Shown: positions 17,173 through 50,724, counted from the first letter of the stretch. The stretch: 64,000 nucleotides of DNA from Candidatus Bathyarchaeota archaeon (GCA_963833575.1 CAWHXY010000004.1:288001-352000), one strand, 5' to 3'. The notes: generated from the letters alone by a model not told the origin. Numbers and translations: made by a program.

Positions 17173-17184
17173 TTTCATGTTCTC

Positions 17185-19502: not shown

Positions 19503-19602
19503 TTGAATATCTGAAATTGATCCATTTTCATTTTCAGGGCAAGATTTTATTTTCATTTTCAAGCATGGTATTAGATCATATAATCGAAAGTGGTGGTTTC
19601 AC

Positions 19603-20142: not shown

Positions 20143-20199
20143 CTTTCCGATTGTAAGTTAATTAAGTCAAACAAAGAGTATATTTAAGGGGCTAAGGCA

Positions 20200-20628: not shown

Positions 20629-20743
20629 AACTTAAGAATTTGTGCTGACCAAGTGTTTTGATAGATATTGTGACGCGGTCAAATTTGTATTTGAACCAAA
20701 CTTAAAACAGCGGAATTTGCCGAGAAATAAGTGGTAAAATGAG

Positions 20744-21064
20744 TTGAATCTCTTGTCAAAAATCTATAATAATCCTGAGGTCCCAATCGAAGTGAAAACT
20801 GGTGAATTCTTCACCATTTCATTGGAGTCGAATCCTACAACAGGGTTCATATGGGATGCGAAATATGATTCTACACTCATCGAAGAGCTCAAATCAAAAA
20901 GTTTTATTCCAATTTCCAAAGCATTGGGTGCCGAAGGTAAAGAATTATTTGAGTTCCAGTCAAAAAAAGTAGGTCACACTTTCATTACTATGAAATATAA
21001 AAGGTCTTGGGAGAACGAAACACCGCGGAAAACGTTGATTTTCAAAGTCGAAGTTAAAGAATAG
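20744..21064 (+). CDS. chagasin-family (I42) cysteine protease inhibitor
   Basis: LESNPTTGFIW, LGAEG, YKRSWE chagasin loops. Confidence 0.9.
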   Translation: MNLLSKIYNNPEVPIEVKTGEFFTISLESNPTTGFIWDAKYDSTLIEELKSKSFIPISKALGAEGKELFEFQSKKVGHTFITMKYKRSWENETPRKTLIFKVEVKE

Positions 21065-21214
21065 GGTTTTTGAAGAAATCGAGACAGTGGATTGAGTGTA
21101 AGAATCGATTGAAGGTCAATTGTTTCTCAATTCTAAAGAAAAATGATTTGTAGAAAAGGCTTAAAAGTTCAGACATCATTAAACGCTTGTAGAGTTTTTA
21201 GGGGAAATACAAAC

Positions 21215-21979: not shown

Positions 21980-22142
21980 AACAATCTTCCATTTCTTTTT
22001 TTCCCATTTTGTTTAATCCCAGTTCCTTCGCTTGTTTTTTGATGGTTTTCAGTCTATCTGTACTACAAGTTTATCAAAAATCATTGCTGGGCAAAGCTTA
22101 AAGACAAAGATCCCCGCAAACTAGAGATATTGAGTAGGTAGC

Positions 22143-22733
22143 ATGCAGGCGTTAAGTATTGTTTTAGTATTAATCAGCATCGGAACCATGGTAGGACCAA
22201 TTGCAGGAGCTGTAATAATCTATAGAGATAATTTGTCTCAACTTGTTGTTCCGCCACAAATCAACAACCTCATCAATAATAACGACGGCAATAGCAATAA
22301 TAACAATAATAATGGCAACGTTGGAAGCGGAAATTTCGGTGTGGGTAATAGTGGCGGAGGATTTCCAACACCAACCTTGGTAAATGAACAAATTAACCTT
22401 GAAGCAAAAACCTTCACTGTTACCTTTAACGTGACAAATAGTTTCAATTATGATTTAACCGTAAATTCATTGAACGCTACCGTAGAAAGTAGCCAAGACC
22501 ACTATCAACTAGGAACAATCAGTTTGGGCTCGCCCGTTACAATAGTTGCTAATCAGAGTTCACTAGTAACAGTTTCAGGGGCATGGACACAGGAAGCAGT
22601 AGATCACGTACAAAATAATTTTCCAGACGCTACATCGATTAACGTTGACTTAGCCTACGTAACGATAGATGTAAATGGCATAATAATTCAACAAACTCAA
22701 CCGATAAACGTAGGCGAGATTCCTCTAACTTGA
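22143..22733 (+). CDS. membrane-anchored hypothetical protein (LEA-like fold possible), Asn/Gly-rich linker
   Basis: N-terminal TM, beta-rich body (FNVTNSFNYDL). Confidence 0.65.
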   Translation: MQALSIVLVLISIGTMVGPIAGAVIIYRDNLSQLVVPPQINNLINNNDGNSNNNNNNGNVGSGNFGVGNSGGGFPTPTLVNEQINLEAKTFTVTFNVTNSFNYDLTVNSLNATVESSQDHYQLGTISLGSPVTIVANQSSLVTVSGAWTQEAVDHVQNNFPDATSINVDLAYVTIDVNGIIIQQTQPINVGEIPLT

Positions 22734-22737
22734 ACCG

Positions 22738-23358
22738 GTGTGCCTGATGCTAAAAGAAATAGCGTTAAACAAAATTAACATAATTGCCATGACTGCGGGA
22801 ATTTCCACTCTATTATTAATAGCAATTTCAGTTTTTGTCCCCTGGTGGCAATTCACTGTTGGAAAACCAACAATCGCACTAATTAGTTTCTCACCAGTAA
22901 ACTTCAACCTTATGCTCTTGGGAAACTCAATGGCAATACCGTTGATTTGGGCGACTAATCTAGCATGTTTTCTAACGTTGCTTTCTGGCGGGATCATAAT
23001 GTTAATTTATTCTTTGAAACCAAACAAATCTTACTCAAAAAAACTACTTGGATTTGGATATAAACAACCGGTGTTTTCAGTCATACTCTTTGTCGTCGAA
23101 TTAATTGCTTTGACCATAGTCGCAAATAGCGTTGCAGGATTTAATGTTCCTATACAAGGCGCAGGTGTACTCCAGATTCCACAATCAATAACCCAGGGAA
23201 GCGGCGTAAACATATCAGTCAACGTTTTGGCAGCTTTAGAGTGGCCATTCTACTTTGGGATTATCGTGGCAGGATTATGCATTACGGCTCGGCTCTACCA
23301 ACCAAAAAAATTAGCAGTTGTAGAACCTTCTGCACCTATTGTGGCTATGAAAAATTAA
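22738..23358 (+). CDS. multi-pass membrane protein
   Basis: About 4 hydrophobic segments; co-oriented with 22143. Confidence 0.65.
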   Translation: MCLMLKEIALNKINIIAMTAGISTLLLIAISVFVPWWQFTVGKPTIALISFSPVNFNLMLLGNSMAIPLIWATNLACFLTLLSGGIIMLIYSLKPNKSYSKKLLGFGYKQPVFSVILFVVELIALTIVANSVAGFNVPIQGAGVLQIPQSITQGSGVNISVNVLAALEWPFYFGIIVAGLCITARLYQPKKLAVVEPSAPIVAMKN

Positions 23359-23426
23359 CTAACCTACGCCTTCCTTTTTTTACTCTATTTAGGTTAAAAA
23401 TTCAATGCGGTCAGCTCAAATTTGCC

Positions 23427-36261: not shown

Positions 36262-36415
36262 GACTATCTTATGGGATTCTTTCCTAAATGAAAAGGTAGA
36301 CGTTTCTGTTCTTTAATAATATAGGATAATTTCACGGCAACATTAGTGCTTAAGATTTGTGCTTCATAACGGTTAAGTTATTTTCCACGTAGAATATGCA
36401 TTGGCTTGACAGAAG

Positions 36416-37606
36416 ATGACTAGTCTTCACAAACTCGGAATTTTTGTTGTTTTCCTTGCGCTGATACTTCTTTCTTCCTGCATTTGTGGTGCTTACGCTC
36501 AAAACAATACCAATAGCACTCAAAATAACCAAACTCAAAGTCCAACTGAGACAGGTCAGGTTCCTGCGCCTTCAATAGAAAGCAATCCTGTGAGGCCAGG
36601 CGAAACAGGTTTCGGAATTACAGTAATTAGTGGAGATTTTAATTCCAACTGGTATGCAGTCAGAGGTGACGGTTCCTCAGGTAACAACTTGGAGGGCTTA
36701 TACTCTAACATTCAATACGATATTGGCAACAGTCAAATGTGCTTTGAGACACAACTGGCCTCTAGTAACGATGGTGGTTCGGGAAACTTTGGAGTTGGAC
36801 AACCAAATGCTACCAGCTCATATGCAATTTCTATTGACTGTGATGGCGCAATTATTCCGATAAATCTCTACAATTGTGCCTACTTCAACGAGTCAAGAAC
36901 TAACGTTATCTATGTTGGGGATCTTCCTGAATTTAATAACACTTTTACATTTCATAATGTTTCGCTTGACACTTACGGTCATGGTTCTTCAACCGTTACA
37001 ATATCGTTAACTCAGCAGTTTATCGCTAACTGGACTGAAATGACAGTTAAAATGGATACTGACGTAGATTTTTCCAATATGCAACTGTATTCTCCAATCA
37101 CTCAGCAACCGATTAGTGCTGGAACCCCATTTTCCCTAACACTAATTTACACTGTCGACATGTCAAACTATACAGCTTCACAAGAACTCGGCCACGCAGT
37201 TAACTTTCAACCCACAGTAACCCCAACACAAATCTATTATACTGGCGACAATGGTTTTGGCTACCAGTATGAAATGGCTAATATGAACTTTGGTGATTCA
37301 TACACTGAGGTTCAAGGAAACAATCAAATTCCCAACCAAACACCAGAAACCTACTTCCAGTCCCAGAGGCCGGGAGTTCAAGGAGCTGGAGCTTCATTCG
37401 TTTTATGTTTCCAAACGTTCAATGGCTTAACCTATGGTTTAACTACTGGCTTAAACAGCGACCCAACACTGACGATTCCTCATAAACCCGTTCAGTCCAC
37501 GAATCAAATCCTATTTGTTCTAATATTATTTGCAGTTGTTGCTGTGACAGCAATTTTAGGCGTGGCGCTCTTGGTTCGGCATCGACGGCACCCTATTCAA
37601 CCTTAA
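36416..37606 (+). CDS. secreted surface protein with C-terminal TM anchor
   Basis: Signal peptide; C-terminal TM + RHRRH. Confidence 0.75.
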   Translation: MTSLHKLGIFVVFLALILLSSCICGAYAQNNTNSTQNNQTQSPTETGQVPAPSIESNPVRPGETGFGITVISGDFNSNWYAVRGDGSSGNNLEGLYSNIQYDIGNSQMCFETQLASSNDGGSGNFGVGQPNATSSYAISIDCDGAIIPINLYNCAYFNESRTNVIYVGDLPEFNNTFTFHNVSLDTYGHGSSTVTISLTQQFIANWTEMTVKMDTDVDFSNMQLYSPITQQPISAGTPFSLTLIYTVDMSNYTASQELGHAVNFQPTVTPTQIYYTGDNGFGYQYEMANMNFGDSYTEVQGNNQIPNQTPETYFQSQRPGVQGAGASFVLCFQTFNGLTYGLTTGLNSDPTLTIPHKPVQSTNQILFVLILFAVVAVTAILGVALLVRHRRHPIQP

Positions 37607-37960
37607 ATGCCCTCTCGATAACGGGGCCAATTGCCTCGCGATTAAATCGGTCTTACCAAGTAAATTTAGTTAGCATTCAAGTGGGTTGGTAGGTCTTCTT
37701 TCCAAATATTTTGCTAAAGTAACTGTTTTTTGCTTGCGTTTCAGCTTTCACAAAAGAAGTCTCTCTGATAGACCAACAACACTTCTTTTTGTATTTTTGT
37801 TCATTGTGTTTTGAGTTTGGGTTTGGTATTAAAATCTAATCCAACCAACATAAAAGAAGGCAACCTATCCTTGAAAAGTTATAGGTGGCAACATTAGGTT
37901 ACTAATTTCTAAAAAATAATAAGGTGTTCACTCGATTCAGGTTACAAGTATCACATAATG

Positions 37961-37987
37961 TTAAGACTAAATTTTAATGCACACCCC
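37961..37987. repeat. cassette site A (core AAATTTT 37969-37975)
   Basis: TTAAGACT-AAATTTT-AATGCACACCCC. Confidence 0.7.
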
Positions 37988-38016
37988 ATTTATGGAGTTA
38001 AAAATACGATAAGCTG

Positions 38017-38895
38017 TCAAAGTGAGAAGCCCTGTGTCATCGAAGAAACGCCCATAGTACAATTAACTAATATGCTACCGTAAACGCCTTCTCCATACCC
38101 CGTGAAAGTCTCCCAATAGATGGTCACGATGTATCTTTGTTGATTTGGCAAAGAGATGCTGTAAGTTCCTTGCTTTTGCAAAGCATAACTGTAATGTATA
38201 CCAACCGTGAATGTTGACGCAGTACCGGTTGGGCTTGATGCCACAAACTGAATCTGGGTTATCCAAGTATCATTGCTGGAGATATCTTCGACTGTGCCAG
38301 AAACTTGAATTTGAGGGGTTAAGACTGTTAATGTATAGGCGCTGGAGTATGTTTTGCCATTAGCTGCTGTCGATTTGATATCTATTTGATAGATTCCCGC
38401 AGGTGTTGCTGCCAAAGCATTGATTACAAGAATGCTAGTGAATGTGTTATTGCTCGATGGCGTTCCTGATTGTTTGAAGAAAGAGCAGAGAATGCTATTT
38501 GGCTCGGCTACAGCGTTTAAAGTGACAGCTTGGGCAGAGCCCTGCAGGCAGGTTATGTTGATGTTGGTTTGAATGCTGTTTCCTTGCTGGATAGTCCCGT
38601 TGTTTGGATAGACACCAATGTTGTAGTCAAAGGGAATGTATGGAGGTGACGTAACATCTGGAGCCAGAGAAGATTCATGGATTGGCAAAGTCCTTTGTAA
38701 GTATATACCCGCAATCACAGTTATGATTAATATGCCTATTATAGCACTGGCAATTGCTATTTTTCCAGTTTTGTTAAAGTTTTTTGGATTGTGAGCTTGG
38801 ATTTCATTAAGTTTCTTTATTGCGTTGCATAATTTCAAGTCAATTTTGCCGAAACTATGGAAGACTGTTTTTGTTTTCATCAGGCTTTCTATCAA
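38017..38895 (-). CDS. membrane-anchored Ig-like hypothetical protein (sole gene between sites A and B)
   Basis: TM IASAIIGILIITVIAG, Thr/Ser-rich beta domains; start uncertain. Confidence 0.65.
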   Translation of the reverse strand: MIESLMKTKTVFHSFGKIDLKLCNAIKKLNEIQAHNPKNFNKTGKIAIASAIIGILIITVIAGIYLQRTLPIHESSLAPDVTSPPYIPFDYNIGVYPNNGTIQQGNSIQTNINITCLQGSAQAVTLNAVAEPNSILCSFFKQSGTPSSNNTFTSILVINALAATPAGIYQIDIKSTAANGKTYSSAYTLTVLTPQIQVSGTVEDISSNDTWITQIQFVASSPTGTASTFTVGIHYSYALQKQGTYSISLPNQQRYIVTIYWETFTGYGEGVYGSILVNCTMGVSSMTQGFSL

Positions 38896-39082
38896 AGAGG
38901 TAAAGTGGAGCGGCTTTTAGTTCTATTCTTGGAACATGCTGTTCCCACTCTGGAACAACTCTTGAAATGTACGTCTTAGCCTTAATACCTACATTATTTT
39001 CCTATTGAGCGTGAGTGAAACCTCTTTGGTTACGCTTTAAATTTGATCGCTGAAAAACTTAATCTGCGAACGTAAAAAATAA

Positions 39083-39110
39083 TTGTGTGTACTAAATTTT
39101 AATGCTAGAA
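39083..39110. repeat. cassette site B (core 39094-39100)
   Basis: TTGTGTGTACT-AAATTTT-AATGCTAGAA. Confidence 0.75.
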
Positions 39111-39220
39111 AGCCCTAGAATAAGCATTTAACTTTTTTACCTAAACATCATATTTGATTGTAAAGAGAGAGGGTTGAGATACCGATTAAATATTTTGAAG
39201 CGCCTGAAATCAAAAAGCAA
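39094..39220 (+). pseudogene. diverged duplicate of site G, promoter and first ~14 codons of the metallopeptidase (48406-48534)
   Basis: About 80% identity by eye; shares CCGATTAAATATTTTGAAGCGCCTGAAAT; start ATG changed to ATA. Confidence 0.85.
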
Positions 39221-39388
39221 AGGTAAAGATATGACATCAAATTTGGTGTTAGCACAAAAACGCGAACTGATAGAATAAAGAAGCAAATTGACTGACACGC
39301 ATGTAGAGAGAGTTAGTCAAGAAACCTTGACTAATTTTAGTTAAGAGACTTTTACGAATACCCTTTTATCGTAACCCATTTCTAACCA

Positions 39389-42043
39389 ATGTATATGGGT
39401 AATATCAGCAAGAGTTTGGCTTTGTTGCTTACTATAATCTTCTTAACATCTCTAGTTACACTTAGTTCGCATGTTCCACTAATGCCCTTAGTCAAAGGAC
39501 AAAATACTTGGAGCACCCAGACTGTAGCGACTGGCGGATCTTTTGGACCCATCTATATTGCTCTTGACTCGGATAATAATCCACACATCGCCTACAGTGG
39601 AGCAAATGGGTTGCTGTATTATGCTAGTTGGGACGGGTCAAAATGGAACATACAAAGCATCGTTCAAGGAGGCACTCCCAACCAGCTTCTATTAGACACG
39701 CATAACAATCCATATGTCCTCTATAAAGGGTCAAACGGCGTAACCTATTATGCGACTTGGAATGGGCTAAGCTGGGTTTTTCAGGCTGTACCTGAAGGCT
39801 ACGGATACTCTTTTGCCTTGGATTCAACAGGCACCCTACACGTAGCTTATGCGATGCAATTATTAGTTAGTGATTATCCTCAAGGAGTCACCAATGACAT
39901 TGCAATGTTAAAATATGCAAGTTGGACAGGATCAAACTGGATCATCCAAACCATAGACTCACCAATTAGCTACACTGACAGCATTTATCTTGCCTTTGAC
40001 CAACAAGATAACCCACACATAATGTATGGATATGACACTTATTATCCACCGAGCGGCGGTTATATTTCAACAGTTAAGTTTGCAGTTTGGAACGGTTCTA
40101 ATTGGAGTATCCAAACAGCCCTCTCTAATTTGGATTTCTTTGGAAACATGGTTTTAGATTCCAGCGGCGACACACATTTCATTTATGCAATTCACTATCC
40201 GCATGAAACAACTATCAATGCTACGTTGGGATATGCCATTTGGGATGGGGCAATATTGCGTACCCAACCCGTCATTTCGAATGCTGCTTTAGGCATGTTT
40301 GTAGGAGCGAACCTCGTTTTAGACGCTAATAATAATCCACACATCGAATTCTTCAATAGCTCAATAATGTACGCGAGCTTAACGGGCACAAACTGGAATA
40401 TCCAAACCGTTGCACCAAACAACTTTGCATATGGAGAGGGACCCCTGGCGTTGGACTCCAAGAATAACCCGTTTATCTGCTACTGGGTAGATGACATACG
40501 TAACACCACCGCTTTTGTGAGCCAATTACTCATTACCTCACCCACACTCCCGCATAATACTCAAAAGACGAATCCTTCGCCTACAAACCCTAATTCTCCA
40601 CCACCCATTTCAGCCTCTGCTTCCAAACTATGGAACTTCAAACCTGCTTACAGTGAAATCCTTTCTCCCGTTGTCGTAAATGGCTTCATTTATTTTTTGT
40701 CTGGAGACAGTGCATCATCCCCATTAGTCTTGTATTGCCTTGACGCTTCAACTGGCGCTCAAGTTTGGAATCATGCTGGATACCTTAATGGATTCACAGT
40801 TGCCAACGGCTACGTCTATGTTGGCGGCGCTTCTCAAGGGTCTTCTTTCTCTATGCAGGGAGTCATTTCCTGCCTGAATGCCAATAGTGGTGTTCAACTA
40901 TGGAATTATTCCGATGGTACAAGCTTTTCAACTCCTGTAGTTAACGGCGGCATAGTCTATGCTGGCGGATTCGGCTACACCCTATCCACAGGTGTAAACA
41001 TCGGCTTCATCTATGCTTTTAATTCATCAACGGGAGATAAACTGTGGAGTTTCTTAGGTCCAAAAAGTACCCGTTTTGATTCCCAAACCCTTGTTGTGGA
41101 AAACACAAACTTATACGCAATGAGCGCAGCCTACTCAGAACAAGACGCTTCATGGCAAAGCGGCATTTACGCATTCAATGCTTACACAAGTGAAAAACTA
41201 TGGAACTACACATCCCCAGGCCAATTTAGTTCCTTTGTAGCATCCGACCAAAACATATACGTTAGCTCCAATTTTGTGGACACCAGAAATTACATCGATG
41301 CTGAAAAGTCAGGCGGCTACGTTTACGAAGGCGGTGTCCTCGCATTAAATGCACAAAGTGGAACAAGAATCTGGAATTACTCAATCAACAATTCTGTGGG
41401 AATACCTGTTATTACAAATAATATGATTTATGTGGCTTCTGGCGACGGGGTCGTTTACTCTTTTAATGTAACAGACGGCTATGTGATTTGGAATTACACT
41501 TCTGGGACAGGCCTGGGTTCTCTTTTGTCAGCGAACAATTACCTTTATGTGGGTTCCTCCTCAGGCATCTACTGTTTCGACGAAGAGAGTGGCAAAGTTG
41601 TTTGGAATTTTGCAACCAGCGATTTCACTGGTTCTTCAGGCACTAATCCGACATTTGCTGACGGCATAATTTACTTGGGATGGAACGGACCCATGTTTTT
41701 CTCGCCTACAACTCAGCACAACTTTTACGCTCTTGATGCATGGACAGGGCAAAAACTTTGGAACTATACGCTGGGATATACGATATGGTCCTCTCCTGTA
41801 GTTGTAGGTGACATCGTTTACATAGGCTGCAATTTTGTAAGTACCAAAAGCCCAGATTATGAGAGCCCAGGTGCTGTTTATGCCCTCAAATCAAGCGTTG
41901 ACTCTTTACCGTTGGCTTCCCCTTCATCATCCCCAACATCAACACCCATAATCCCAGAGACAATACTTCTGTTATTTGTTATTGCAATAGTTACTATTGC
42001 CGGTTTAGTGGTTTACTTCAAGAAATACAAGGTTAAACATTGA
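39389..42043 (+). CDS. secreted double beta-propeller protein (PQQ/BamB-like C-terminal half), IPE-TM anchor
   Basis: ALDS.NNPHI repeats, then A..A.TG...WNY repeats; C-terminal IPET + TM + KK. Confidence 0.85.
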   Translation: MYMGNISKSLALLLTIIFLTSLVTLSSHVPLMPLVKGQNTWSTQTVATGGSFGPIYIALDSDNNPHIAYSGANGLLYYASWDGSKWNIQSIVQGGTPNQLLLDTHNNPYVLYKGSNGVTYYATWNGLSWVFQAVPEGYGYSFALDSTGTLHVAYAMQLLVSDYPQGVTNDIAMLKYASWTGSNWIIQTIDSPISYTDSIYLAFDQQDNPHIMYGYDTYYPPSGGYISTVKFAVWNGSNWSIQTALSNLDFFGNMVLDSSGDTHFIYAIHYPHETTINATLGYAIWDGAILRTQPVISNAALGMFVGANLVLDANNNPHIEFFNSSIMYASLTGTNWNIQTVAPNNFAYGEGPLALDSKNNPFICYWVDDIRNTTAFVSQLLITSPTLPHNTQKTNPSPTNPNSPPPISASASKLWNFKPAYSEILSPVVVNGFIYFLSGDSASSPLVLYCLDASTGAQVWNHAGYLNGFTVANGYVYVGGASQGSSFSMQGVISCLNANSGVQLWNYSDGTSFSTPVVNGGIVYAGGFGYTLSTGVNIGFIYAFNSSTGDKLWSFLGPKSTRFDSQTLVVENTNLYAMSAAYSEQDASWQSGIYAFNAYTSEKLWNYTSPGQFSSFVASDQNIYVSSNFVDTRNYIDAEKSGGYVYEGGVLALNAQSGTRIWNYSINNSVGIPVITNNMIYVASGDGVVYSFNVTDGYVIWNYTSGTGLGSLLSANNYLYVGSSSGIYCFDEESGKVVWNFATSDFTGSSGTNPTFADGIIYLGWNGPMFFSPTTQHNFYALDAWTGQKLWNYTLGYTIWSSPVVVGDIVYIGCNFVSTKSPDYESPGAVYALKSSVDSLPLASPSSSPTSTPIIPETILLLFVIAIVTIAGLVVYFKKYKVKH

Positions 42044-42259
42044 CTATTATTTTTCTTTATTTTGGATGTTAAACGTGCGTGTTCACATGCAAACGCGTAC
42101 TCTGTGAGCGCGAAAGTTAGACCCTGAGTCTTCTAAACAAGAAAAGGTACCTCAGCTAATTGTATCAAGCGCACATAGTGCTTATGTTGCGTATGTGTGT
42201 GTTGGCGAAACGATTATACGCTTTCGAGTTGTTGACGCTGGGTTCATAAATCTCTTGTC

Positions 42260-42883
42260 TCACAGCGTTTTTATCAGCGTTTCTATGTTGAAAAATGTGT
42301 TGGCACAACCGTTCTTTAGCAACGGAACAGATTGCCAAGGCATGCCCACACCACTCAACCATTCACCAGACATAAGCACTTCTGCACCGCATGCAACGCC
42401 CACAACACCCTCGTACTTCTTCTGCTTCAAAATATTAGGCATACAAGAACCCCCAGATAAAACGTAAACGTCGTACCCTTTTTCTCTAGCAATGCGTTCT
42501 GCCTTGTTGACACAACAATCAGGTGAGCAATGAGCACAAACGTAAGAGGGCAAGCTCGGCTCGAAAACTGCTTGGCATTGACTATCCATGTATTTTCTAC
42601 AGCAGTGAGGAAGGAAAAGAGCCCTTTTTTTAGTCTGCAGAAATTCCTGTCTCTCCACCAAATTCAAAGTTTGCATATGAAGGAAGTCTCTAATTAGTTC
42701 CACGGAATCTTGGATGTTAAGTCCAGTAATTTCCTGAATTCTGAATTTTCTGATTAAAACCATTAACATCCGTGAGGTTTTTGAGAAAACCTTGTCCATA
42801 CCCGTTTGGTTGGCGATGATGGCGAGTTCTATGAAAAAGTGTTGCGGAGCCTTCGAAATGTCGAAAGTAAACTTGTAGGGCAT
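42260..42883 (-). CDS. DUF116 domain protein
   Basis: LFLPHC, CAHCSPDC, LSGGS, VVGVAC, PLLKNGC. Confidence 0.85.
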   Translation of the reverse strand: MPYKFTFDISKAPQHFFIELAIIANQTGMDKVFSKTSRMLMVLIRKFRIQEITGLNIQDSVELIRDFLHMQTLNLVERQEFLQTKKRALFLPHCCRKYMDSQCQAVFEPSLPSYVCAHCSPDCCVNKAERIAREKGYDVYVLSGGSCMPNILKQKKYEGVVGVACGAEVLMSGEWLSGVGMPWQSVPLLKNGCANTFFNIETLIKTL

Positions 42884-43290
42884 AACTCAAAATAAACAAA
42901 GGGGCCAAACTTAAAAAGAGTATCTTGCCACGGCCAGATGGATTTGAAGTTTTGCTTTGTCGCATGCCTAAATCTCATATTCATAATGCCATTTTCTTGA
43001 GTGACTTCAGTCCCCACAGGAATAGAAAGAGGGGCTACTGGTGCTGACTAAAATAATAATAACAATAGTTAGGTATTGGTATGAGGAGTAAGAAACATAG
43101 TAAAACTTACCCCCTGCTAATTAAACAAAATAATGTTATTAGGGGTAAAAAATAATAGAAAAATTACCCCTCACAAAAACCAATCTAAAGGTAAAACCGA
43201 AACTAAGGGAAATGTCTTTGTTGTTTAATCGCTTTATAGGGAGGGTTGCTCAGTATAAGCGGTAGCGTTATGATTAAATGGTGATTGTAT

Positions 43291-43578
43291 ATGTCGGAAA
43301 AATCAAAAATTGTTTTCGTTGGAAATAAAATGCCGATGGATTATGTTATGGCAATTATGACAGGCTTGTCGGCGAATGATTCTAAAGAAATAACTTTGAA
43401 AGCGAGAGGAAAGGCAATAACTACAGCCGTTGACGCAGCCGAAATAGTGAGAAATCGCTTCCTAAAAGACCTGAAAGTACACAAAATCGCGATAGGAACA
43501 GAAGAGATGCCGGCGAGAGAGGGCGAAACCAGAACACGGATGGTTTCAACAATTGAAATAATGCTTACAAAAGCTTAG
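43291..43578 (+). CDS. albA: DNA/RNA-binding protein Alba (paralogue 2)
   Basis: VFVGNKMPMDYV, LKARGKAITTAVDAAEI, VSTIEI; GGTGA RBS. Confidence 0.92.
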   Translation: MSEKSKIVFVGNKMPMDYVMAIMTGLSANDSKEITLKARGKAITTAVDAAEIVRNRFLKDLKVHKIAIGTEEMPAREGETRTRMVSTIEIMLTKA

Positions 43579-43622
43579 AATATTTTGCGAAACACACGCT
43601 AAGTAAAACAAAAAGGACGGCA

Positions 43623-43673
43623 TGTTTTGGTCTTCTGCAGTCTGATTGAAAATCACGTTGCAGAACCAAGACA
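43623..43673. terminator. long imperfect hairpin between convergent genes
   Basis: TGTTTTGG..TTCTGCA..TGATT-GAA-AATCA..TGCAGAA-CCAAGACA. Confidence 0.45.
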
Positions 43674-43691
43674 AAATGCTTTCTCAGCTTT

Positions 43692-43901
43692 TTACATATT
43701 TGGGCTATTCTCTGACTTCTCTTTAAACTTCTTTTGCTTTAATTCCTTTCTTTTGACTTTGGCTCCATATCTTTTCCTAACGTAAATTGCCCTACAACTA
43801 TTGGCATGGTACATTTTTTTTGGATCATACGTTTTGAATACAATGCCGCAGGGGCAGGTTACACTGAGAACTTTACTGCTTAGTCTTTCGAAGTTTTCCA
43901 T
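43692..43901 (-). CDS. small basic zinc-finger-like protein
   Basis: CPCG...YHANSCR, Lys-rich tail. Confidence 0.6.
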   Translation of the reverse strand: MENFERLSSKVLSVTCPCGIVFKTYDPKKMYHANSCRAIYVRKRYGAKVKRKELKQKKFKEKSENSPNM

Positions 43902-44267
43902 ATCACTCTACCCAACAATTTTTACATTCAAGGAACTTGAGAAGAACCGTATCCACAGCATTATACTCAATGATTAAAGATAATAAGTCCTTCTTTTCCT
44001 CTTCAGCACTCCATAGATGCCCTAAAGACTAATTGTTCTAAAGTTACTCTTTTCTTTTTCAATCTTTCCACGCTTCTATTAGGTAGACAAGGCAACGCGA
44101 AAATGGCTCTTTGTAAGGCTATATTTTCTTGTACTGTTATCCCTATATACTCCGCAATGCTATAGCATAGACTTGTCAGAATTTTTTAAGAAGAAGAATA
44201 CAAGCCTATTCCAAGTTACTTTGTTTTCTCAAGACAGTTCTGACAAAAAATATGGAAGAAAATAACT

Positions 44268-44909
44268 TTGAACCATAAAAAACCAATCATAATCGAGCAC
44301 CTCGCCTATATTTCAGTGAAGCACCACGTTTACCTTTCAGAGCTCTATCAGGCTTTAGTTTCGGCAAGAGAAAGTGGAAAATCTACCTGTGAGACTTTAA
44401 CAATCAAGTACCGCGGAAACAAAACCGACCAAGCTATCTTTCTTATCACAAAAAGCAATATCGTCATAGCGCAGTTCCGAGTTGAGGAAGAATTTCTGCT
44501 TAGAAAGAACATAAGTTTTGAGAGCTGGCTGGATACTGACAAAATACGCAGACAAATAACTAAACAAAACCTCAGACTTGATTCGATGTTAATTCAAAAC
44601 TTGCGATACGGAATGAAGAAGGTTAATCTAACGGCGGAAGTTTTGGAAACCGAAAAAACCCACCTAATACACACCCAGTACGGAAACAGCGTCATGCTGA
44701 CTGGGGTCTGGATAGGTGATGAAACTGGAAAAGTCAAGCTTAGTCTCTGGGGCGAACAAGCAAACTTGCCAGTCATAGGTGACATAGTGCAAATCAAGCA
44801 TGCATCAGTACGAACTTTCAGGGGAGAACAACTTCTGAGTTTGGGAAAATTCGGTTCATTCAGCATTCTACGCTCGTTAATTGTTGATAATAGTAATGTG
44901 ACCGCATAA
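44268..44909 (+). CDS. protein with C-terminal SSB/RPA-like OB fold
   Basis: GMKKVNLTAEVLE, IGDETGKVKLSLWGEQ, FRGEQLLSLGKFG. Confidence 0.8.
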   Translation: MNHKKPIIIEHLAYISVKHHVYLSELYQALVSARESGKSTCETLTIKYRGNKTDQAIFLITKSNIVIAQFRVEEEFLLRKNISFESWLDTDKIRRQITKQNLRLDSMLIQNLRYGMKKVNLTAEVLETEKTHLIHTQYGNSVMLTGVWIGDETGKVKLSLWGEQANLPVIGDIVQIKHASVRTFRGEQLLSLGKFGSFSILRSLIVDNSNVTA

Positions 44910-45431
44910 AAGCTCTCCAATCTCTTTTAGAATTAGTGTCACTATCTAAGAGTGAAGAAGGAATTTTACACTTAACCCTGTCATCGGTCAAGCAATAAGA
45001 AAACTCCGACAAAAAGAGAAAACAGAAGGTTTAGAAAAATGAATTGGAGATTAATTAAAGTGAATTTATTCGCATGTCGGTTCTATTTGTTAAGAGAAAT
45101 TTCACATTTTAAGCATCAATTGCCAAGTTTTCAGATATTTTAGCAAGTTTGGTTTGCTTCTAAGTGCAATTGAAAGCAGTAGCCATTTTTCTTCATCGGA
45201 AAGAGCCCATAATTCAATAACTGACTCCAAAATTTCCTCAGTTATTATTATTCTTTCCGTATTAATTGAGATTTTTCTAGCGCGCCGCGCCCTCCTGAGT
45301 CGAAATGTCCTTTCAACCGATAGGAAGACTTAAAGAAAACAAGCTAACAATACGCATACAGAGCGGAAGAACTTGGAAAAACACAGCGACGACTTATTTA
45401 CTTTTACCTTTTTCGGTTTTGGTGAAAATAT

Positions 45432-45605
45432 ATGAAAGATTTTAAATGTCCAATATGTGGTGGACCAACTGAAAAGGTTTGGGAAAATGAAACTAAAACA
45501 AGATACGGAATGAAATGTAGAGATGGTCATAAAAACACCAATACCAAATCGGGTGGTTCACAAGAATACTCCGTGTTTCTTGTTTCAAGTGAAGAACTGG
45601 AATAG
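45432..45605 (+). CDS. small zinc-ribbon protein (57 aa)
   Basis: Manual ORF MKDFKCPICGG...MKCRDGH...EELE*; GGTGA RBS. Confidence 0.65.
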   Translation: MKDFKCPICGGPTEKVWENETKTRYGMKCRDGHKNTNTKSGGSQEYSVFLVSSEELE

Positions 45606-46171
45606 TTAGAGTTACTTGTCGAAGAGTCCCGTAGACACAGAGAGCTCAGTAATAAAACAGCAGATACACAAGCGAAAATGTGTCCACTTCTTAATGAAAT
45701 GCAGAACTCTGACGCTGGCAAAAGACATGATTAAGGGCGTATTTAATCCTCTGCTCCTCTCTGCGAAATGCACGAAACCGAAAACTGCTTATACACTACC
45801 CCCTCAGATAAGGATTAAAGGAAACAATGTTTCCATACACGATAAGAAATCAAATTTTTCGAATCAAAAAACTTTAGAGGTAGAAAAGAAATGACAACAA
45901 AAAAATCTAAAAAAAATCGCTTACCACCCAAAACAGACTCCAAACATAGACCCAAAGAGACCCAAAAGAAAAATCAAAACACCAACAAAAGAATTGAGAC
46001 ATTTTTACCCATTTCAAATGAAGAGATGCCCAAAGACTAACTAACCATGGTAAATAATTGGTGTGCCCTTTTCCCTTAACAGATATGTAAGCTCTGAGTA
46101 TATTCTCTTTTAGGTCTGCTGAGCAGATTCTACTGAGTGTCTAATACTGTACAGTTCCCCAGTAGTAGAAA

Positions 46172-46200
46172 GGGGTGTTCACTAAAATTTAATGCAGGGG
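46172..46200. repeat. cassette site D (core AAAATTT 46184-46190, reverse orientation or central substitution)
   Basis: GGGGTGTTCACT-AAAATTT-AATGCAGGGG. Confidence 0.7.
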
Positions 46201-46208
46201 CTTGCAGC

Positions 46209-46427
46209 TTAGAGTCCAAGGTGGTCGTGTAGGGTCTTCTGGCTTATGTCCGTCCACTCATGACCGCAGCTTTTGCACTTGAAAGTTACCCTAAAATTCT
46301 CGATACGTTCCCGCTTGTAGCCGCCCCTGTATCCAGGCTCCATAACCTCATATGGGTTTTCGAGCTGCTCACGTTTTACCTCTTTCGCCTGGAACAACCG
46401 ACCGCATGACGGGCATCTTTTGAACAT
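46209..46427 (-). CDS. small zinc-ribbon protein (sole gene between sites D and E)
   Basis: CPSCG...FKCKSCGHEW. Confidence 0.75.
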   Translation of the reverse strand: MFKRCPSCGRLFQAKEVKREQLENPYEVMEPGYRGGYKRERIENFRVTFKCKSCGHEWTDISQKTLHDHLGL

Positions 46428-46520
46428 GATTCCAGCTTCAATCAGGTATTGGAATTTTATGTCTTAAATGTTTGCCCCGCAATGTACGTTGTAATCGGGC
46501 ATGAAAGCCTTCCAAAATCA

Positions 46521-46550
46521 GTGTGTGTGCATTAAATTTTAATCTTTTTC
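46521..46550. repeat. cassette site E (core 46534-46540)
   Basis: GTGTGTGTGCATT-AAATTTT-AATCTTTTTC. Confidence 0.8.
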
Positions 46551-47531
46551 CCCTCTGCTTCTAACTAACTCCTACTTACTACTTCTCTTTACTATTACTC
46601 TCTACTCTTTCTCCTTATTTACACACAAGACAGACAAACAAAAAATCAAAAAAGAAAAGAAGATGTTTAGCTAAGGTTTCTTGGTGTGCCGCTTTTTTGC
46701 TGCCAATTCAATCGTGCAAAGGGTCACTGCCACTGCTGCAGCCGCAACTAAAATGAGCGCTGCACTGCTGAACTCAGGTACTGTCGGAGTAGAAGTTGCA
46801 GAAGTTGTCGGGCTAACGGAAGCAGATGCAGTTGGGCTTGATGACGCAGACGTAGTTTTAACGTACACGTTTCCTGTTTGAACTGCGGTGAAACCGTTGT
46901 TTGTGATTGTGAAATAATCGTCTTGAGTTATGCCTAGTACGCTATATATGCCTTCGAAAGTGGTTGAGTTGGTTATAGCCCAAGTGCCAGAATGGTTACT
47001 AAATAGTCCTGTGCCATTTTCATAAAGAATTATAGTGTATCCTGTTCCGCTTGAAGTTTGTTCCGCATACGTACCAGCCATACTTGACATAGTAGGTGTT
47101 GCACTTGCGTTGGCTGCTGACAAAGCAAAAATCGCGATGAGCATTAAACCTAGTAGCTTCCAAACTTTGACTTTCATGTTTATCCCTTAATGTTTCTTCG
47201 GTAGCACGCTATTGATACGTGCCCTAACTGGCTTAGTTTGTTTCAATAAACATAAAAAACTTTGCTATAAAAGCCTGAAGTAGCCTTATTGCGCGGTAAG
47301 TTAAACTAAATGAAAAGAAGTAGCGAATTGCTTAATATTTTAGACTTTAAACCATGCTTTCTTTCTTCGTTAACCGTCTTTGTTGTGAAAAAACAGAGCC
47401 CCTGCTTGTGAGGGGGTGCCCTTTAGGGTGATGTTCCTCACTAAGCGAGGTGTTTTTGCTTCACTATTTCAGCATGTGTGTTTGTCTTTGTCTGTCTGAC
47501 TTGTGTGTGCTAAAGGAGAGAGAAAAAGATT
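46541..47531. mobile_element. inverted-repeat-bounded single-gene cassette (E-F)
   Basis: Perfect 10-bp ends AATCTTTTTC/GAAAAAGATT, sub-terminal IRs at 46610-46643 and 47476-47520, flanked by AAATTTT direct repeats. Confidence 0.7.
46671..47177 (-). CDS. small secreted protein with Ser/Thr linker and PEF-CTERM-like anchor
   Basis: Signal peptide; VPEF + TM + KKRH. Confidence 0.8.
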   Translation of the reverse strand: MKVKVWKLLGLMLIAIFALSAANASATPTMSSMAGTYAEQTSSGTGYTIILYENGTGLFSNHSGTWAITNSTTFEGIYSVLGITQDDYFTITNNGFTAVQTGNVYVKTTSASSSPTASASVSPTTSATSTPTVPEFSSAALILVAAAAVAVTLCTIELAAKKRHTKKP

Positions 47532-47546
47532 AAATTTTAATCTTGG
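47522..47546. repeat. cassette site F (core 47532-47538)
   Basis: GAAAAAGATT-AAATTTT-AATCTTGG. Confidence 0.8.
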
Positions 47547-47653
47547 AGGTTCTACGCAGGAACCTATAGAGGGCCTATCCTCGCAGGTTCCGTTTTTTCG
47601 TTTTCTCTTCAGATAAGCTTTTACTTTGAAAATAAAAGCAAGTAATTGTAACT

Positions 47654-48205
47654 TTAGTTTAGTCCTTTAATGTTTGTGTCTTTAAGGTTAAATTCTATAT
47701 GGTAGGTTTGATTTTCAAAAATTGTCGTATAAATAATTCTAACGGGCCACAGAAGAACTTTATCTATGTAATATGTAGCGTTAATAGCTTGGTTGGTGTA
47801 ATCGTAGACTATGCAATCTCGGCTTCCTAAGCTTCTGACGGTTATTTTCGTATTATAGGTTCTTGCAAGTGTCATACCTTTAGGCTGAAAGTTGATGTTT
47901 GTTTTATTGACCCACAAAGTAGTTTGGTCGGATAATGTTGGCGCAAAAGATGTGGCAATTGATGAGTTTGTCTTGATTTGCACGTGGGTGGCGTTTAAGT
48001 CAGTAATTTGTATCGTTTCGTTTACGCTACTTGGTATAGAAATGGAGTCTATTTGGCCTTCATATGTTGCATATGCCCCTTTAAACATCCAAGACTCAGC
48101 CATGCTGTGCTGGGAATTATCCATAAGTTGGATTCCAATAATCAAAACTAATGATGAAATGGCTAAAACGATAGCGAACCCAACAATTATCCAACCTTTT
48201 CCCAT
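47654..48205 (-). CDS. membrane-anchored hypothetical protein (sole gene between sites F and G)
   Basis: N-terminal TM, WMFKGAYATY, L.DTNI end. Confidence 0.75.
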   Translation of the reverse strand: MGKGWIIVGFAIVLAISSLVLIIGIQLMDNSQHSMAESWMFKGAYATYEGQIDSISIPSSVNETIQITDLNATHVQIKTNSSIATSFAPTLSDQTTLWVNKTNINFQPKGMTLARTYNTKITVRSLGSRDCIVYDYTNQAINATYYIDKVLLWPVRIIYTTIFENQTYHIEFNLKDTNIKGLN

Positions 48206-48397
48206 ACTTAGCTAAGGAATGAATTGCGTTAAAAGGGTTATCACGTTTAACAATTTTCCCTCTCCTTTAAGGATATGTCCAGAAACCTCAGCAAACCATT
48301 TTATTTTTTAGGTTAAACCAAAATTGGCAATATGGTGAATAGTCAAAATCAACCGTTAAATTAACCCACGATAAGACCCTTTCAAACGCGAGACAAA

Positions 48398-48422
48398 TCA
48401 TGGTAAAATTTTAATGCCAGAA
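48398..48422. repeat. cassette site G (core 48406-48412), junction with conserved chromosome
   Basis: CATGGTA-AAATTTT-AATGCCAGAA. Confidence 0.65.
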
Positions 48423-48492
48423 ATCCCTTGAATATGCGCTTAACTTTTTAACCTTAACGACATATTTGCATGTGAAAGAGAGAGGGTTTGGC

Positions 48493-48903
48493 ATGCCGAT
48501 TAAATATTTTGAAGCGCCTGAAATTAAAAAACAAGTAGACCAGCTGGCTGAAGAATGCGAGTTCTACCACGTTGTACCCCAATTCGTTTACTGCATACGC
48601 AGCAGAGGTTCTAAAGCCAGACGCACTATTGCCCGCATTCATGGTTTAGGCAAAGTTTGGCAAGGCGTTCTGAACATGCCGGCGTCGTACACGATTGAAG
48701 TTATCTCGGAAGTTTATGACAGGATGTCACCTGAAGATAAAGAAAGAACATTGATTCATGAACTGATGCATATCCCAGGAGGATTTTCAGGAGGCTTTCG
48801 CCCGCACAAAGGATATGTGGAAAGAAAAAATGTCGAAGCAGTTTACAAGAAGCTTCAGAGTGATAGGGCTGCAAAAAAACAGAAACCGCTTTTTTTCGGG
48901 TAA
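48493..48903 (+). CDS. putative HExxH metallopeptidase (archaeal COG4900-like)
   Basis: RSRGSKARRTIARIHGL, LIHELMHIP, GGFRPH. Confidence 0.85.
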   Translation: MPIKYFEAPEIKKQVDQLAEECEFYHVVPQFVYCIRSRGSKARRTIARIHGLGKVWQGVLNMPASYTIEVISEVYDRMSPEDKERTLIHELMHIPGGFSGGFRPHKGYVERKNVEAVYKKLQSDRAAKKQKPLFFG

Positions 48904-49056
48904 ACTCTGCCATTTTCTTAACTTTTTTGAGCTTTGCAAGTAAGATTAAAGTTAGTCTCAAGTTTAACACCGAAAAGTAAAAAAAGCATGTAAAAACAAA
49001 TATTGACAAGACTTAAACGAACAAGTTCTATTCCATGAAATATTGAGGTTTAACAA

Positions 49057-50724
49057 ATGAAACACGTTATGAAAAGTCTGAAGCATAACGGAATATTCGT
49101 TCCAACTTACGATTACAAAGGCTTCACCATCAAAATTAACGGACAACCCGTAAAGTTGACTCCCAAAAGCGAGCAGATGGCGGTTGCCTGGGTACGAAAA
49201 ACCCTCTCAACTGTGTCGCCGCCAGACCAAGTTTTCAAACATAATTTCATGCGTGAATTTCTAAATGAAATCAAAGCTGAAAATCCTTCAGCCACCTTTC
49301 TGAACAATTTTGTTCCAAGTTACCTCCACAATATAGAGCATCCGCCAGCAACCCTAAACAACGGCAGCCAGCCAGCAAACCAGGAAATTGATTTCTCACA
49401 AGTCGCCAACTACATTGAAAGCGAAAAAGCCAAAAAAGAAGCCCTCACCAAAGAAATCAAAAAACAACAGGCTGAAGAACGCAAAGTTAAACGCTTGGAA
49501 TTCAAAGAAAAATATGGCTACGCCGAGGTTGATGGACAAAAGCTGGAGATTGCCAACTGGACATCTGAGCCATCATGCCTTTTTGCTGGTCGAGGAGATC
49601 ATCCGCAACGGGGCAAATGGAAGGATGGCCCAAGCGAATCTGACATTATTCTTAATTTACCTAAAGATGATAAAGGTAAACTCCTGGTTCCAAGGCCAGC
49701 TGGAAACTGGAAGGATATAGTTTGGGAACCTAACAAAATGTATGTTGCCAAATGGGAAGACAAGCTAACAGGAAAAATCAAATATGTCTGGTTTAGCGAC
49801 ACAGCATTTCTCAAACAAAATCGCGAAAAAGAAAAGTTCCAAAAAGCTGAAACATTGGGCAAACAAATCAAAACTATAGAGCAGCACATTTTGCGAAATC
49901 TTAATGATAAAGACGATTTGAGGCGCAAAACTGCAACTGTCGCGTGGCTTATTTTGGTGCCAAACATGAGGGTCGGCGACGAAAAAGACCCAGACGAAGC
50001 CGACACAGTAGGCGCCATAACACTCAGAGCCGAACACATCAAAATAGAAGGCAACATCATCCACTTCGACTTCCTCGGCAAAGACAGCGTCAGATGGATA
50101 AAAGACATACCAGCACCACCCGAAGTCATACGAAACCTACAGCACTACGCCAAAACAAGCAAAGAATACCTCTTCGAAGGCGTCGACTCCAAAATGGTCG
50201 CCCGATTTCTATCTGAAAAAATGCCGAAACTCACCGCTAAGGTTTTCCGTACATGGAGATGCACAAAAACCGTCCGAGAAGAATTAGAGAAAAGCGGAAT
50301 AACAAAAGAAGACCCAGATTACTGCAAGGTTTACGCCGCAAAAATGGCCAATTTCAAAGTCGCCGAAGTCGCAAACCACAAACGCAAAGTTCCACCAACC
50401 TTTGACCAGCGCTTAGAGAAGAAGGAAGCAAACATCAAATCATTAGAGGCGCAGCTTGTGGTGAAGAAGGCGGCTGGCAAAAAAACCGAAACATTAGAAA
50501 CTCGAATAAAGCGGGCCAAGCTTGACTTAGAACTAACCAAACTAACCAAAGAATACAATTTAGGAACATCGCTCAAATCTTACATTGACCCGACAGCTTA
50601 TGTGAAATGGGCTAAAAAAGTCAAGTTCGACGTCGAAAAATTCTACCCCACAACACTCCGAAACAAGTTCAGCTGGGCACTGCAGAGCGGCAAAGCGCAA
50701 GCAGCCGAGTGCATAACTGCATGA
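49057..50724 (+). CDS. DNA topoisomerase IB (eukaryote-like)
   Basis: LKHNGI, F.GRGDHPQRGKWK, MRVGDEK, FDFLGKDSV, LTAKVFRT, NH, LGTSLKSYIDP (full catalytic pentad). Confidence 0.95.
   Translation: MKHVMKSLKHNGIFVPTYDYKGFTIKINGQPVKLTPKSEQMAVAWVRKTLSTVSPPDQVFKHNFMREFLNEIKAENPSATFLNNFVPSYLHNIEHPPATLNNGSQPANQEIDFSQVANYIESEKAKKEALTKEIKKQQAEERKVKRLEFKEKYGYAEVDGQKLEIANWTSEPSCLFAGRGDHPQRGKWKDGPSESDIILNLPKDDKGKLLVPRPAGNWKDIVWEPNKMYVAKWEDKLTGKIKYVWFSDTAFLKQNREKEKFQKAETLGKQIKTIEQHILRNLNDKDDLRRKTATVAWLILVPNMRVGDEKDPDEADTVGAITLRAEHIKIEGNIIHFDFLGKDSVRWIKDIPAPPEVIRNLQHYAKTSKEYLFEGVDSKMVARFLSEKMPKLTAKVFRTWRCTKTVREELEKSGITKEDPDYCKVYAAKMANFKVAEVANHKRKVPPTFDQRLEKKEANIKSLEAQLVVKKAAGKKTETLETRIKRAKLDLELTKLTKEYNLGTSLKSYIDPTAYVKWAKKVKFDVEKFYPTTLRNKFSWALQSGKAQAAECITA

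Follow-up and report, generated by a model that had tools for sequence, protein, structure and literature searches.

The DNA analysed here, referred to below as the window, is a 64,000-nucleotide stretch from the genome of a Candidatus Bathyarchaeota archaeon (C4:288001-352000 of G000, an assembly of 2.75 Mb in 8 contigs that is 94% complete). Its subject is a stack of gene cassettes that are separated from each other by one short palindromic site and that have been inserted, as synteny with congeners indicates, beside a locus for a metallopeptidase and topoisomerase IB (TopIB). The first-pass annotation, which was made from the sequence of the window, had listed six intergenic copies of a site consisting of an arm, a 7-bp core and an inverted arm, and all six are present where it placed them. 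They are palindromic as described but are better parsed as copies of a 13-bp palindrome, ATTAAAWTTTAAT, in a 6-1-6 layout, which is the part that all the sites share when they are read symmetrically. One more copy, A0, had been overlooked, and the copies in the window are as follows.

37828-37840: site A0, ATTAAAATCTAAT, 1 mismatch, right arm of the CCAACC type
37966-37978: site A, ACTAAATTTTAAT
39091-39103: site B, ACTAAATTTTAAT
46181-46193: site D, ACTAAAATTTAAT, centre base flipped relative to A, B, E and F
46531-46543: site E, ATTAAATTTTAAT, the exact consensus
47529-47541: site F, ATTAAATTTTAAT, the exact consensus
48403-48415: site G, GTAAAATTTTAAT, 2 mismatches, a degenerate outermost copy beside the chromosomal flank

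Sites A and B have the asymmetric sequence ACTAAATTTTAAT in common and in equal orientation, and E and F have ATTAAATTTTAAT in common. With at most 1 mismatch the 13-mer is found 6 times in the window compared to 0.45 times expected, and none of 100 shuffles reached 6; all six matches, among them A0 and not G, lie within 37828-47541. An 11-mer version of the site is weak, with 13 matches compared to 6.6 expected, a number that was reached in 3 of 100 shuffles. The spacing of the sites in the window ranges from 138 to 7090 bp, and the distance from a site to the downstream start codon is about 105-350 nt, site A lying between convergent genes. The arms outside the palindrome are simple-sequence tips of the (CA)n, (CCAA)n and (CT)n-like types, each of which is also found in some genome at the ends of the Cas1-encoding elements that are described below. 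No tRNA or known RNA gene that could serve as a target was found in 36000-49000, where the sole match, SNORD35, is at chance level (E 0.61), and the only tRNA of the window is at 7066.

The sites occupy a stretch which, with its neighbours, is laid out as follows, the array abutting the metallopeptidase and TopIB genes as the first-pass annotation had it.

33631-36261, plus strand: P-type cation ATPase, left neighbour (Pfam, synteny)
36262-48493: insertion island of 12.2 kb between the P-type ATPase and metallopeptidase genes
48493-48903, plus strand: metallopeptidase, right neighbour (PF18894, synteny)
49057-50724, plus strand: TopIB (PF01028, PF02919, synteny)

In five of the ten congeners examined (G001, G003, G010, G008 and G013) the stop codon of the ATPase gene and the start codon of the metallopeptidase gene are about 45-55 bp apart with TopIB next, and because the two genes are adjacent in these genomes we read 36262-48493 as an insertion island. 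The other five congeners have a 1.2-kb acyltransferase-like gene (two genomes) or other content (three genomes) at this place, and thus the spot is variable across the genus while the flanking synteny around the island is otherwise kept. When the 100-kb syntenic stretches of G001, G003, G014 and G016 were searched, no island proteins were found in them beyond paralog-level matches, and the site itself is absent from most congeners that retain the neighbouring genes.

Intervals A-B, D-E, E-F and F-G each hold one main open reading frame (ORF) on the minus strand, the remaining ORFs in them being nested antisense ones, and this agrees with the single accessory gene per interval that had been claimed.

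38017-38895, minus strand: A-B cassette gene, 292 aa, membrane-anchored, no Pfam or NCBIfam family
46209-46427, minus strand: D-E cassette gene, a 72-aa zinc-ribbon protein
46544-47528, minus strand: E-F element, about 1 kb, non-autonomous, with CTTTTTC tips, a second 45-nt inverted block and identical 13-mers outside
46671-47177, minus strand: E-F gene, 168 aa, secreted, with a C-terminal anchor
47654-48205, minus strand: F-G cassette gene, 183 aa, with an N-terminal anchor, no family

Three of the cassette products are membrane or surface proteins, as had been proposed, when this is judged from a reading of their hydrophobic N- or C-termini rather than from a predictor, and several cassette proteins end in what looks by eye like a PEF-type C-terminal anchor. 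The earlier claim that the two ends of A-B, D-E and E-F are inverted repeats of each other holds for E-F, where the inversion goes beyond the short arms (z 9.3 relative to shuffles), and does not hold for A-B (z -1.3) and D-E (z 0.6), whose ends are inverted over only about 6-9 nt with the 13-mer included. Pfam detected no recombinase family among 10 island proteins; since no integrase is encoded in the array, the array consists only of non-autonomous or decayed units and the enzyme must act in trans, as the first-pass annotation had concluded.

Interval B-D is occupied by a block of several genes.

39389-42043, plus strand: PQQ beta-propeller surface protein
42260-42883, minus strand: DUF116 protein
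43285-43578, plus strand: Alba
43692-43901, minus strand: Zn-ribbon protein
44268-44909, plus strand: SSB-like OB-fold protein
45432-45605, plus strand: Zn-ribbon protein

These assignments are from Pfam/NCBIfam. Each of the B-D genes (39389-45605) has paralogs elsewhere in G000 and homologs across the genus, in which the block is conserved, and therefore this part of the island copies ordinary chromosomal genes.

The element that points to the enzyme lies on another contig of the same genome. At C6:321675-331702 there is a 10-kb element whose terminal inverted repeats (TIRs) of 287 bp are 99.65% identical, and directly outside both of its ends there is an identical 13-mer in direct orientation. 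The element encodes a Cas1 of 324 aa (G000:C6:324424-325395; PF01867 E 6.7e-36, TIGR00287 E 2.3e-39), which is the only intact Cas1 of G000. Cas2 was not found in G000 by a search whose control was positive in 6 of 14 genomes, a k-mer script found no CRISPR-like array in it, and Pfam recognized only Cas1 and no other recombinase family among the 10 ORFs of the element. The largest ORF of the element is 347 aa and hence it has no family-B polymerase (PolB); genome-wide PF03175 gave no match either, but the control for this profile matched nowhere and PF00136 was not searched. Three of the four features of a casposon, namely a non-CRISPR Cas1, TIRs and a flanking duplication, are thus found in the C6 element and the polymerase is not. 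Among solved structures, a CRISPR Cas1 (7cr6, E 1.8e-10) and the Methanosarcina mazei casposase (6opm, E 2.8e-10), whose chain is 431 aa, are at much the same distance from its Cas1. In an alignment of 18 family members glutamate 143 is invariant, and in the 8 members shown a histidine and acidic residues stand at what we take to be the active-site places. Two remnants of Cas1 are also present in G000, both in or near arrays.

C6:333146-333385: Cas1 C-terminal remnant, just right of site S (the right-hand site of the element) and behind a surface-protein gene
C4:205443-205772: Cas1 C-terminal remnant

The array on C6, which is 13.7 kb long, sits between a gene with a thiamine pyrophosphate (TPP) riboswitch and the gene for valyl-tRNA synthetase (ValRS); these two genes are separated by about 150 bp in G013 and G003 and by about 0.5 kb in G001. 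These empty TPP-ValRS spacers contain only a weak look-alike of the site, so that the target as it was before insertion is unreadable there. The methyltransferase gene left of site R of this array has no ortholog in 5 congeners and is itself inside a cassette. The riboswitch (RF00059, 62.3 bits) was located at L001 3763-3874 on the minus strand, that is G000:C6:319762-319873, upstream of a 198-aa membrane protein.

A position-weight scan of the whole genome of G000 gave 25 matches at a score of 14 or higher compared to 6-10 in five Markov-3 simulations, and about 18 sites scored 17.5 or higher, a level that was reached in two of the five simulations (maxima 16.0-21.5). The sites are clustered at C4:112494 and 113349, C4:215361, the window, C6:285730-289304, C6:320065-331702, C7:469282 and C7:530165, which is not the pattern of a general promoter element. 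The 138-bp stretch from A0 to A recurs at C4:215209-215367 and C7:534958-535114. Elsewhere in G000 the cargo of cassettes includes a GNAT acetyltransferase, DUF2284, an amidohydrolase, a methyltransferase and a beta-propeller surface protein. The region C4:110181-114370, in which sites 112494 and 113349 lie, is paralogous to parts of the island (Alba and a zinc ribbon, 83% DNA identity) and a paralog of the A-B cassette protein (29% identity) stands beside site C4:112494; this paralogy suggests a duplication or a parallel seeding of arrays.

In 121 genomes drawn from the taxonomic family the exact 13-mer occurs 4-31 times in 15 genomes, with 0-3 copies of a reversed control, and not at all in 83; two of the four genomes of the genus that are among the 121 have it once. 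Matches to the C6-type Cas1 at E 1e-10 or better were obtained in 46 of the 121 genomes, many of them full length (45-69% identity) and many of them C-terminal fragments. A Cas1 match is present in 10 of the 15 site-rich genomes and in 36 of the 106 others, a comparison in which the relatives are not independent of each other. In most of the loci of the relatives, which are other Bathyarchaeia, Cas1 lies between inverted repeats that are 3.8-10.5 kb apart, and in 8 of their loci it is surrounded by repeats of 29-271 bp. When the flanks of 11 Cas1 elements that are bounded by TIRs or by sites were read, identical direct 13-mers were found in five, these being the C6 element of G000, element a of G050, and the elements of G051 (ATCAAAATTTAGT), G038 (TTAAAATTTTTAT) and G079 (ATTAATGCGTAAT), the last of which has 271-bp repeats that are 100% identical. 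The 13-mers of G051, G038 and G079 are asymmetric and therefore their direct orientation is meaningful. In G050 an 8.0-kb Cas1 element, a 7.7-kb Cas1 element with a different tip, a 4.7-kb element and units of 0.9 and 0.8 kb stand in a row with only 13-mers between and outside them. Arrays of 0.4-2.7-kb units stand in G013, G134, G048 and G158, other genera among them, and the stacks reach 7-8 units, the majority of them small Cas1-less cargo cassettes. Ten ORFs from the elements of G050 and G134 gave no match to another recombinase family.

The genes that relatives have in common beside Cas1 encode proteins of 201 aa, with an invariant LMLD.D motif, of 113 aa, and of 314 aa, with a GKT P-loop. 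For the 201-aa protein a model with a pLDDT of 62 was obtained, for which the best Foldseek match was a RepB' primase at E 0.17, and in a wide fold search 7 of the 10 top matches were primase/AEP folds with Z 4.7-5.8, which is below the level that the tool advises; this predicted fold hints that the protein may be primase-like (AEP). The model of the 314-aa protein was poor (pLDDT 39) and was not used. Cargo related to defence was also seen in Cas1 elements of other Bathyarchaeia, namely a CAP12/Pycsar TIR-domain effector (L036:17472-17987, minus strand, PF10137 E 2.4e-33) and a C5 DNA methylase followed by an HATPase protein (L038:11621-15035, plus strand).

The comparison with related genomes, which had been proposed as a check, shows gain and loss of genes with boundaries at the site. 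When the island DNA was searched genus-wide in 101 genomes its units were found separately in other species. The E-F unit is present at 88-93% identity in three other species (G197, G227 and G149), and in G197, where the identity is 91%, the match stops exactly at 46533, in the first bases of the E 13-mer, and the sequence beyond is unrelated; one peat-metagenome contig (run X4) also begins its match at 46533. G158 lacks the D-E unit: there a single 13-mer connects the counterpart of the sequence left of D (45739-46193, 85%) with the right arm of E. The right arm of E and the left arm of F in G158 enclose 4 kb with a PAS histidine kinase and no Cas1, and here they enclose 1 kb with a secreted protein. 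The Cas1 of G158 (80% identity) ends at a neighbouring site, beside homologs of the D-left and E-right arms. The presence or absence of cassettes therefore breaks exactly at the 13-mer in two other species. The F-G gene has DNA homologs of 84-91% identity in at least 11 genomes of the genus, with a site-like sequence at the position of F in one of the eight that were fetched (G198). Public reads gave no circle junction, empty site or well-flanked joint: in one run 36% of the sampled words were found at depth 2-5 with short contigs, and three other runs had pieces of relatives. A scan of metagenomes for CTTTTTC-type arms on both sides found one contig (L096), whose context fits tandem elements or a circle alike.

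Since the site is a 13-bp direct repeat that flanks Cas1 elements with long TIRs, it bears the signature of casposon-type transposition. The explanation that we favour, and which we hold to be rather probable, is that the sites are target-site duplications (TSDs) of a casposon-like, Cas1-solo family of Bathyarchaeia that lacks PolB, the non-autonomous and decayed members of which have been stacked by re-use of the target with Cas1 supplied in trans. The Cas1 integrase (casposase) would join the 3' ends of an element at staggered positions 13 bp apart in the target, and repair of the gaps would duplicate the 13-mer on both sides of the element. Each insertion would in this way regenerate two targets, so that later insertions land at the same place, and the outcome would be a stack of 13-mer, element, 13-mer, element, and so on. 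The island in the window would then consist of non-autonomous members, of which E-F is the clearest, of remnants of casposon ends (D-left, A0-A and 43137-43177) and of other cargo, and the enzyme for it would have come from the C6 copy or from one that has been lost. In this explanation we infer that Cas1 made the joins, that the small cassettes are pieces it mobilized and not products of decay, and that events followed this order. The putative end remnants that have not been listed so far are as follows.

43137-43177: inverted-repeat motif like the inner end of the C6-element TIR, 91% over 43 bp to repeat positions 245-287
46063-46180: D-left, subterminal sequence of the casposon-TIR type, 73% identical over 131 bp to the sequence on the left side of site P on C6

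Over 56 bp D-left also matches, at 80% identity, a subrepeat within the C6 element (C6:322606-322661).

Several observations weigh against this explanation. Intervals A-B, B-D, D-E and F-G have no inverted ends beyond a few bases, and a tblastn search of the window with the proteins of the C6 element (E 1e-3 or better) found no Cas1 and no remnant of the core genes. In three of the 11 Cas1 elements (element b of G050, which has 98% repeats, G134 and G046) the 13-mers on the two sides differ by a flipped centre, site D of the window has a flipped centre as well, and a simple target duplication does not predict flipping; in two more (G089 and G060) no flanking repeat was found and another one is at a contig end. 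Five of the 15 site-rich genomes, with completeness of 66-92%, gave no match to the C6-type Cas1. In congeners, the ATPase-metallopeptidase spacers that are empty lack a good copy of the 13-mer, and the repeat of about 130 bp that B and G head, which is described further below, far exceeds a duplication of 13 bp. A conservative recombinase would explain the missing inverted ends and the flipped centres as well or better. Finally, the catalytic residues of Cas1 are putative ones, placed by matching an alignment to the active-site motif of Cas1 proteins, and the activity of the enzyme is presumed.

A conservative recombinase was what the first-pass annotation had proposed, namely a lambda-type tyrosine recombinase that acts on a 7-bp overlap. 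In such an integron- or pdif-like system a XerA-like enzyme or an integrase encoded elsewhere would recombine circular cassettes with the crossover in the AAATTTT centre. The junctions that it predicts are no different, with hybrid arms and with every cassette bounded by a site at either end. Inverted ends are not required, in agreement with D-E and F-G, and the flipped centre bases could stem from heteroduplex formation where the centres are mismatched. G000 does have five tyrosine-recombinase genes (C6:133344, C1:827, C2:778, C7:19451 and C4:4201-4719), but none of them is in or near any cluster of sites; the window has no PF00589 match, the nearest one being C4:4201-4719 at about 284 kb from the start of the window, and likewise no tyrosine recombinase is beside the located arrays of five site-rich relatives (G050, G013, G158, G053 and G077). 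The elements that the site flanks have inverted repeats of 110-290 bp and carry Cas1 and no tyrosine recombinase, asymmetric 13-mers are directly oriented around recently inserted elements, and conservative recombination gives no reason for inverted repeats of 100-290 bp. As the exact 13-mer is lacking in 83 of the 121 family genomes it is also not a housekeeping dif site. We consider this system quite improbable; the first-pass annotation is right on the array and wrong on the enzyme family. An operator of a dimeric transcription factor for surface-protein genes, to which a 6-1-6 palindrome that is intergenic and often upstream of envelope-protein genes would lend itself, is hardly credible: the distances to start codons vary and site A is between convergent genes, homology between genomes breaks at the site, the site flanks transposon-like elements and it is missing in most congeners that keep the neighbouring genes. 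The genome scan, too, shows rare and clustered sites rather than sites at fixed distances from promoters, and on these grounds the promoter or operator reading was rejected.

The two other explanations keep Cas1 and differ in what the small cassettes are. If only decay were at work the units would be former full Cas1 elements or trapped host DNA, and the small cassettes would be leftovers of deletions that were never mobile. The Cas1 C-terminal remnants that adjoin arrays in G000, the many fragments in relatives, the solo end fragments A0-A and D-left, the conserved B-D block, and D-E and F-G with their lack of inverted ends are all consistent with this. It accounts poorly for the recurrence of E-F in three other species with homology that in G197 ends exactly at the E 13-mer, for the arms of E-F that bound a 4-kb element with other cargo and no Cas1 in G158, for D-E being present in G000 and absent from G158 with a single junction site, and for 12 kb of island without a remnant of a core gene; we therefore regard decay alone as improbable. 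At the other extreme the arrays may be a working gene-capture platform, a Cas1-based analogue of the integron, in which solo Cas1 inserts gene-sized DNA and duplicates the 13-mer each time. This would take in the pieces without proper inverted ends (D-E and F-G) as well as the envelope, sensor and defence cargo, and if it were true the arrays would represent an extant intermediate stage between transposition by casposons and the acquisition of spacers by CRISPR, but we put it forward tentatively and think it on balance unlikely.

Under the favoured explanation, a casposon-like family without PolB, the closest known systems are the casposons of families 1-4 (MetMaz-C1 of M. mazei, AciBoo-C1 of Aciduliprofundum boonei, and NitNF5-C1/C2 of Nitrosopumilus). 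The parts of the published accounts that are available describe Cas1 as the only candidate integrase, TIRs and a duplication of about 14 bp, and describe re-use of the target that leads to tandem elements with a common duplication, to solo repeats and to decayed copies (PMC4779613, PMC6563490, PMC6977970), all of which resemble what is seen here. Casposases integrate site-specifically, produce TSDs of about 14 bp and tolerate differing DNA ends (PMC6977970), and tandem casposons that share one TSD are on record (PMC4779613, PMC6563490). Unlike these casposons the elements here have no family-B polymerase and encode instead the weakly primase-like 201-aa protein, the 113-aa protein and the 314-aa P-loop protein; their target is a short AT-rich palindrome that is kept across genera and not the end of a tRNA or EF-2 gene; and their stacks reach 7-8 units that are mostly Cas1-less, whereas the arrays in the available published text are of two elements. 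The proposed family 5 casposases from hot springs (PMC9755687) are alike in traits, which is the only basis of the likeness: as far as the accessible part of the report goes they are archaeal Cas1-solo proteins, mostly without PolB, with no C-terminal helix-turn-helix, with inverted repeats and with variable hypothetical neighbours, and are read as non-self-replicating transposons. In its main text, to the extent that this is available, 'TSD' occurs 0 times and 'target site' once, and an account of a target site or of arrays was not met.

The array shares with integrons the mostly single-gene cassettes beside a fixed chromosomal point, the one site per boundary and the common orientation of four cassettes. 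An attC site is 57-141 bp long and has bulged bases and long imperfect inverted repeats that fold as hairpins, and a dif site has an 11-6-11 layout; by these definitions the site is neither attC-like nor a dif, as had been claimed. Its boundaries are a 13-bp palindrome with variable simple-sequence arms, the cassettes have their own upstream regions of 100-350 bp, and there is no adjacent IntI-type recombinase. The pdif modules or IMEX of XerC/D are alike in their modules of 1-2 genes, short palindromic sites, alternating combinations of arms and recombinase in trans, and unlike in that the site here is not 11-6-11, is missing in most related genomes and bounds Cas1 elements with long inverted repeats. 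With CRISPR arrays the likeness is in a Cas1-family integrase, a short and partly palindromic repeat that is duplicated per insertion, and the order repeat, insert, repeat. The inserts here, however, are 0.35-10 kb and carry genes, the spacing is irregular, there is no Cas2 and no sign of an immune function, and the repeat is 13 bp compared to 24-47 bp for CRISPR in the available text of PMC4779613. That portion of the same paper also draws an analogy to Tn7-type attachment-site islands, which resemble the array in their repeated site-specific insertion and in having intact and decayed elements beside a housekeeping gene, and differ in the family of the transposase and in the structure of the ends (PMC4779613).

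In the main texts of open-access papers and preprints (supplements excluded) we found no description of a short palindromic target that is shared across genera, of arrays that reach 7-8 units and consist mostly of small cassettes or of turnover at the 13-mer; as far as the available text of the open-access papers goes, only tandem pairs and a few types of target have been described so far. The CRISPR adaptation machinery has been proposed to descend from casposons, and the arrays are a repeat-insert-repeat architecture that is filled with genes and probably made by a Cas1 integrase. Two ideas become testable in this way, one being that the duplication of a repeat by Cas1 predates immunity and the other that a Cas1 integrase serves as a gene-capture system. 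The 13-mer also offers an easy way to locate variable islands in an abundant uncultured class of archaea, and an integrase that is small and site-specific, with a landing site of 13 bp, might serve as a tool.

Sites B and G head a direct repeat of about 130 bp which the first-pass annotation did not note. Its two copies are 82-88% identical (85% over 129 bp) and were aligned with the ATPase-metallopeptidase spacers of congeners.

48406-48534, plus strand: functional flank copy, with the metallopeptidase promoter and first codons
39094-39220, plus strand: truncated second flank copy, with a stretch like the 3' end of the ATPase gene, the metallopeptidase promoter and codons 1-14, the start codon being lost

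The first 25-35 nt of B-right and of G-right resemble the 3' end of the ATPase gene, a likeness to which no statistic is attached and which, as read from the sequence, is suggestive. In G004, the closest congener examined, the ATPase gene is also separated from the metallopeptidase gene, and at the junction (L014, G004:C46, about 17640-17670 of the oriented locus) there is an ATPase 3'-end remnant of about 25 nt beside the metallopeptidase promoter; the 13-mer was not seen there.

Some smaller observations were made in the island and beside it. The 190 bp upstream of the A-B gene match the right-hand flank of site S on C6 at 77% identity. The motif GGGGTAAAAAAT ... ATTTACCCC, which stands at the inner end of the terminal repeat of the C6 element (L001 5870-5960), is also present upstream of the Alba gene of the island (43090-43180), at C4:114263-114370 and at C7:538674-538818, and may be protein-binding or origin-like. 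Just upstream of the PQQ gene, 57 bp (39315-39371) are 72-88% identical to 8 other places in the genome (on C4, C6, C7 and C8) and may serve envelope-protein genes as a common promoter or leader, and 43 bp at 38914-38956 recur in the genome likewise. The stretch 45741-46079 has 75-90% identity in many genomes of the genus, contains an ORF of 49 codons for a very basic small protein (45893-46042, plus strand) and is a unit of its own between two 13-mers in G158. Outside the island, the window has another variable region of about 15 kb at 8700-23400, for which the syntenic regions of G001 and G003 have hardly any homologs.

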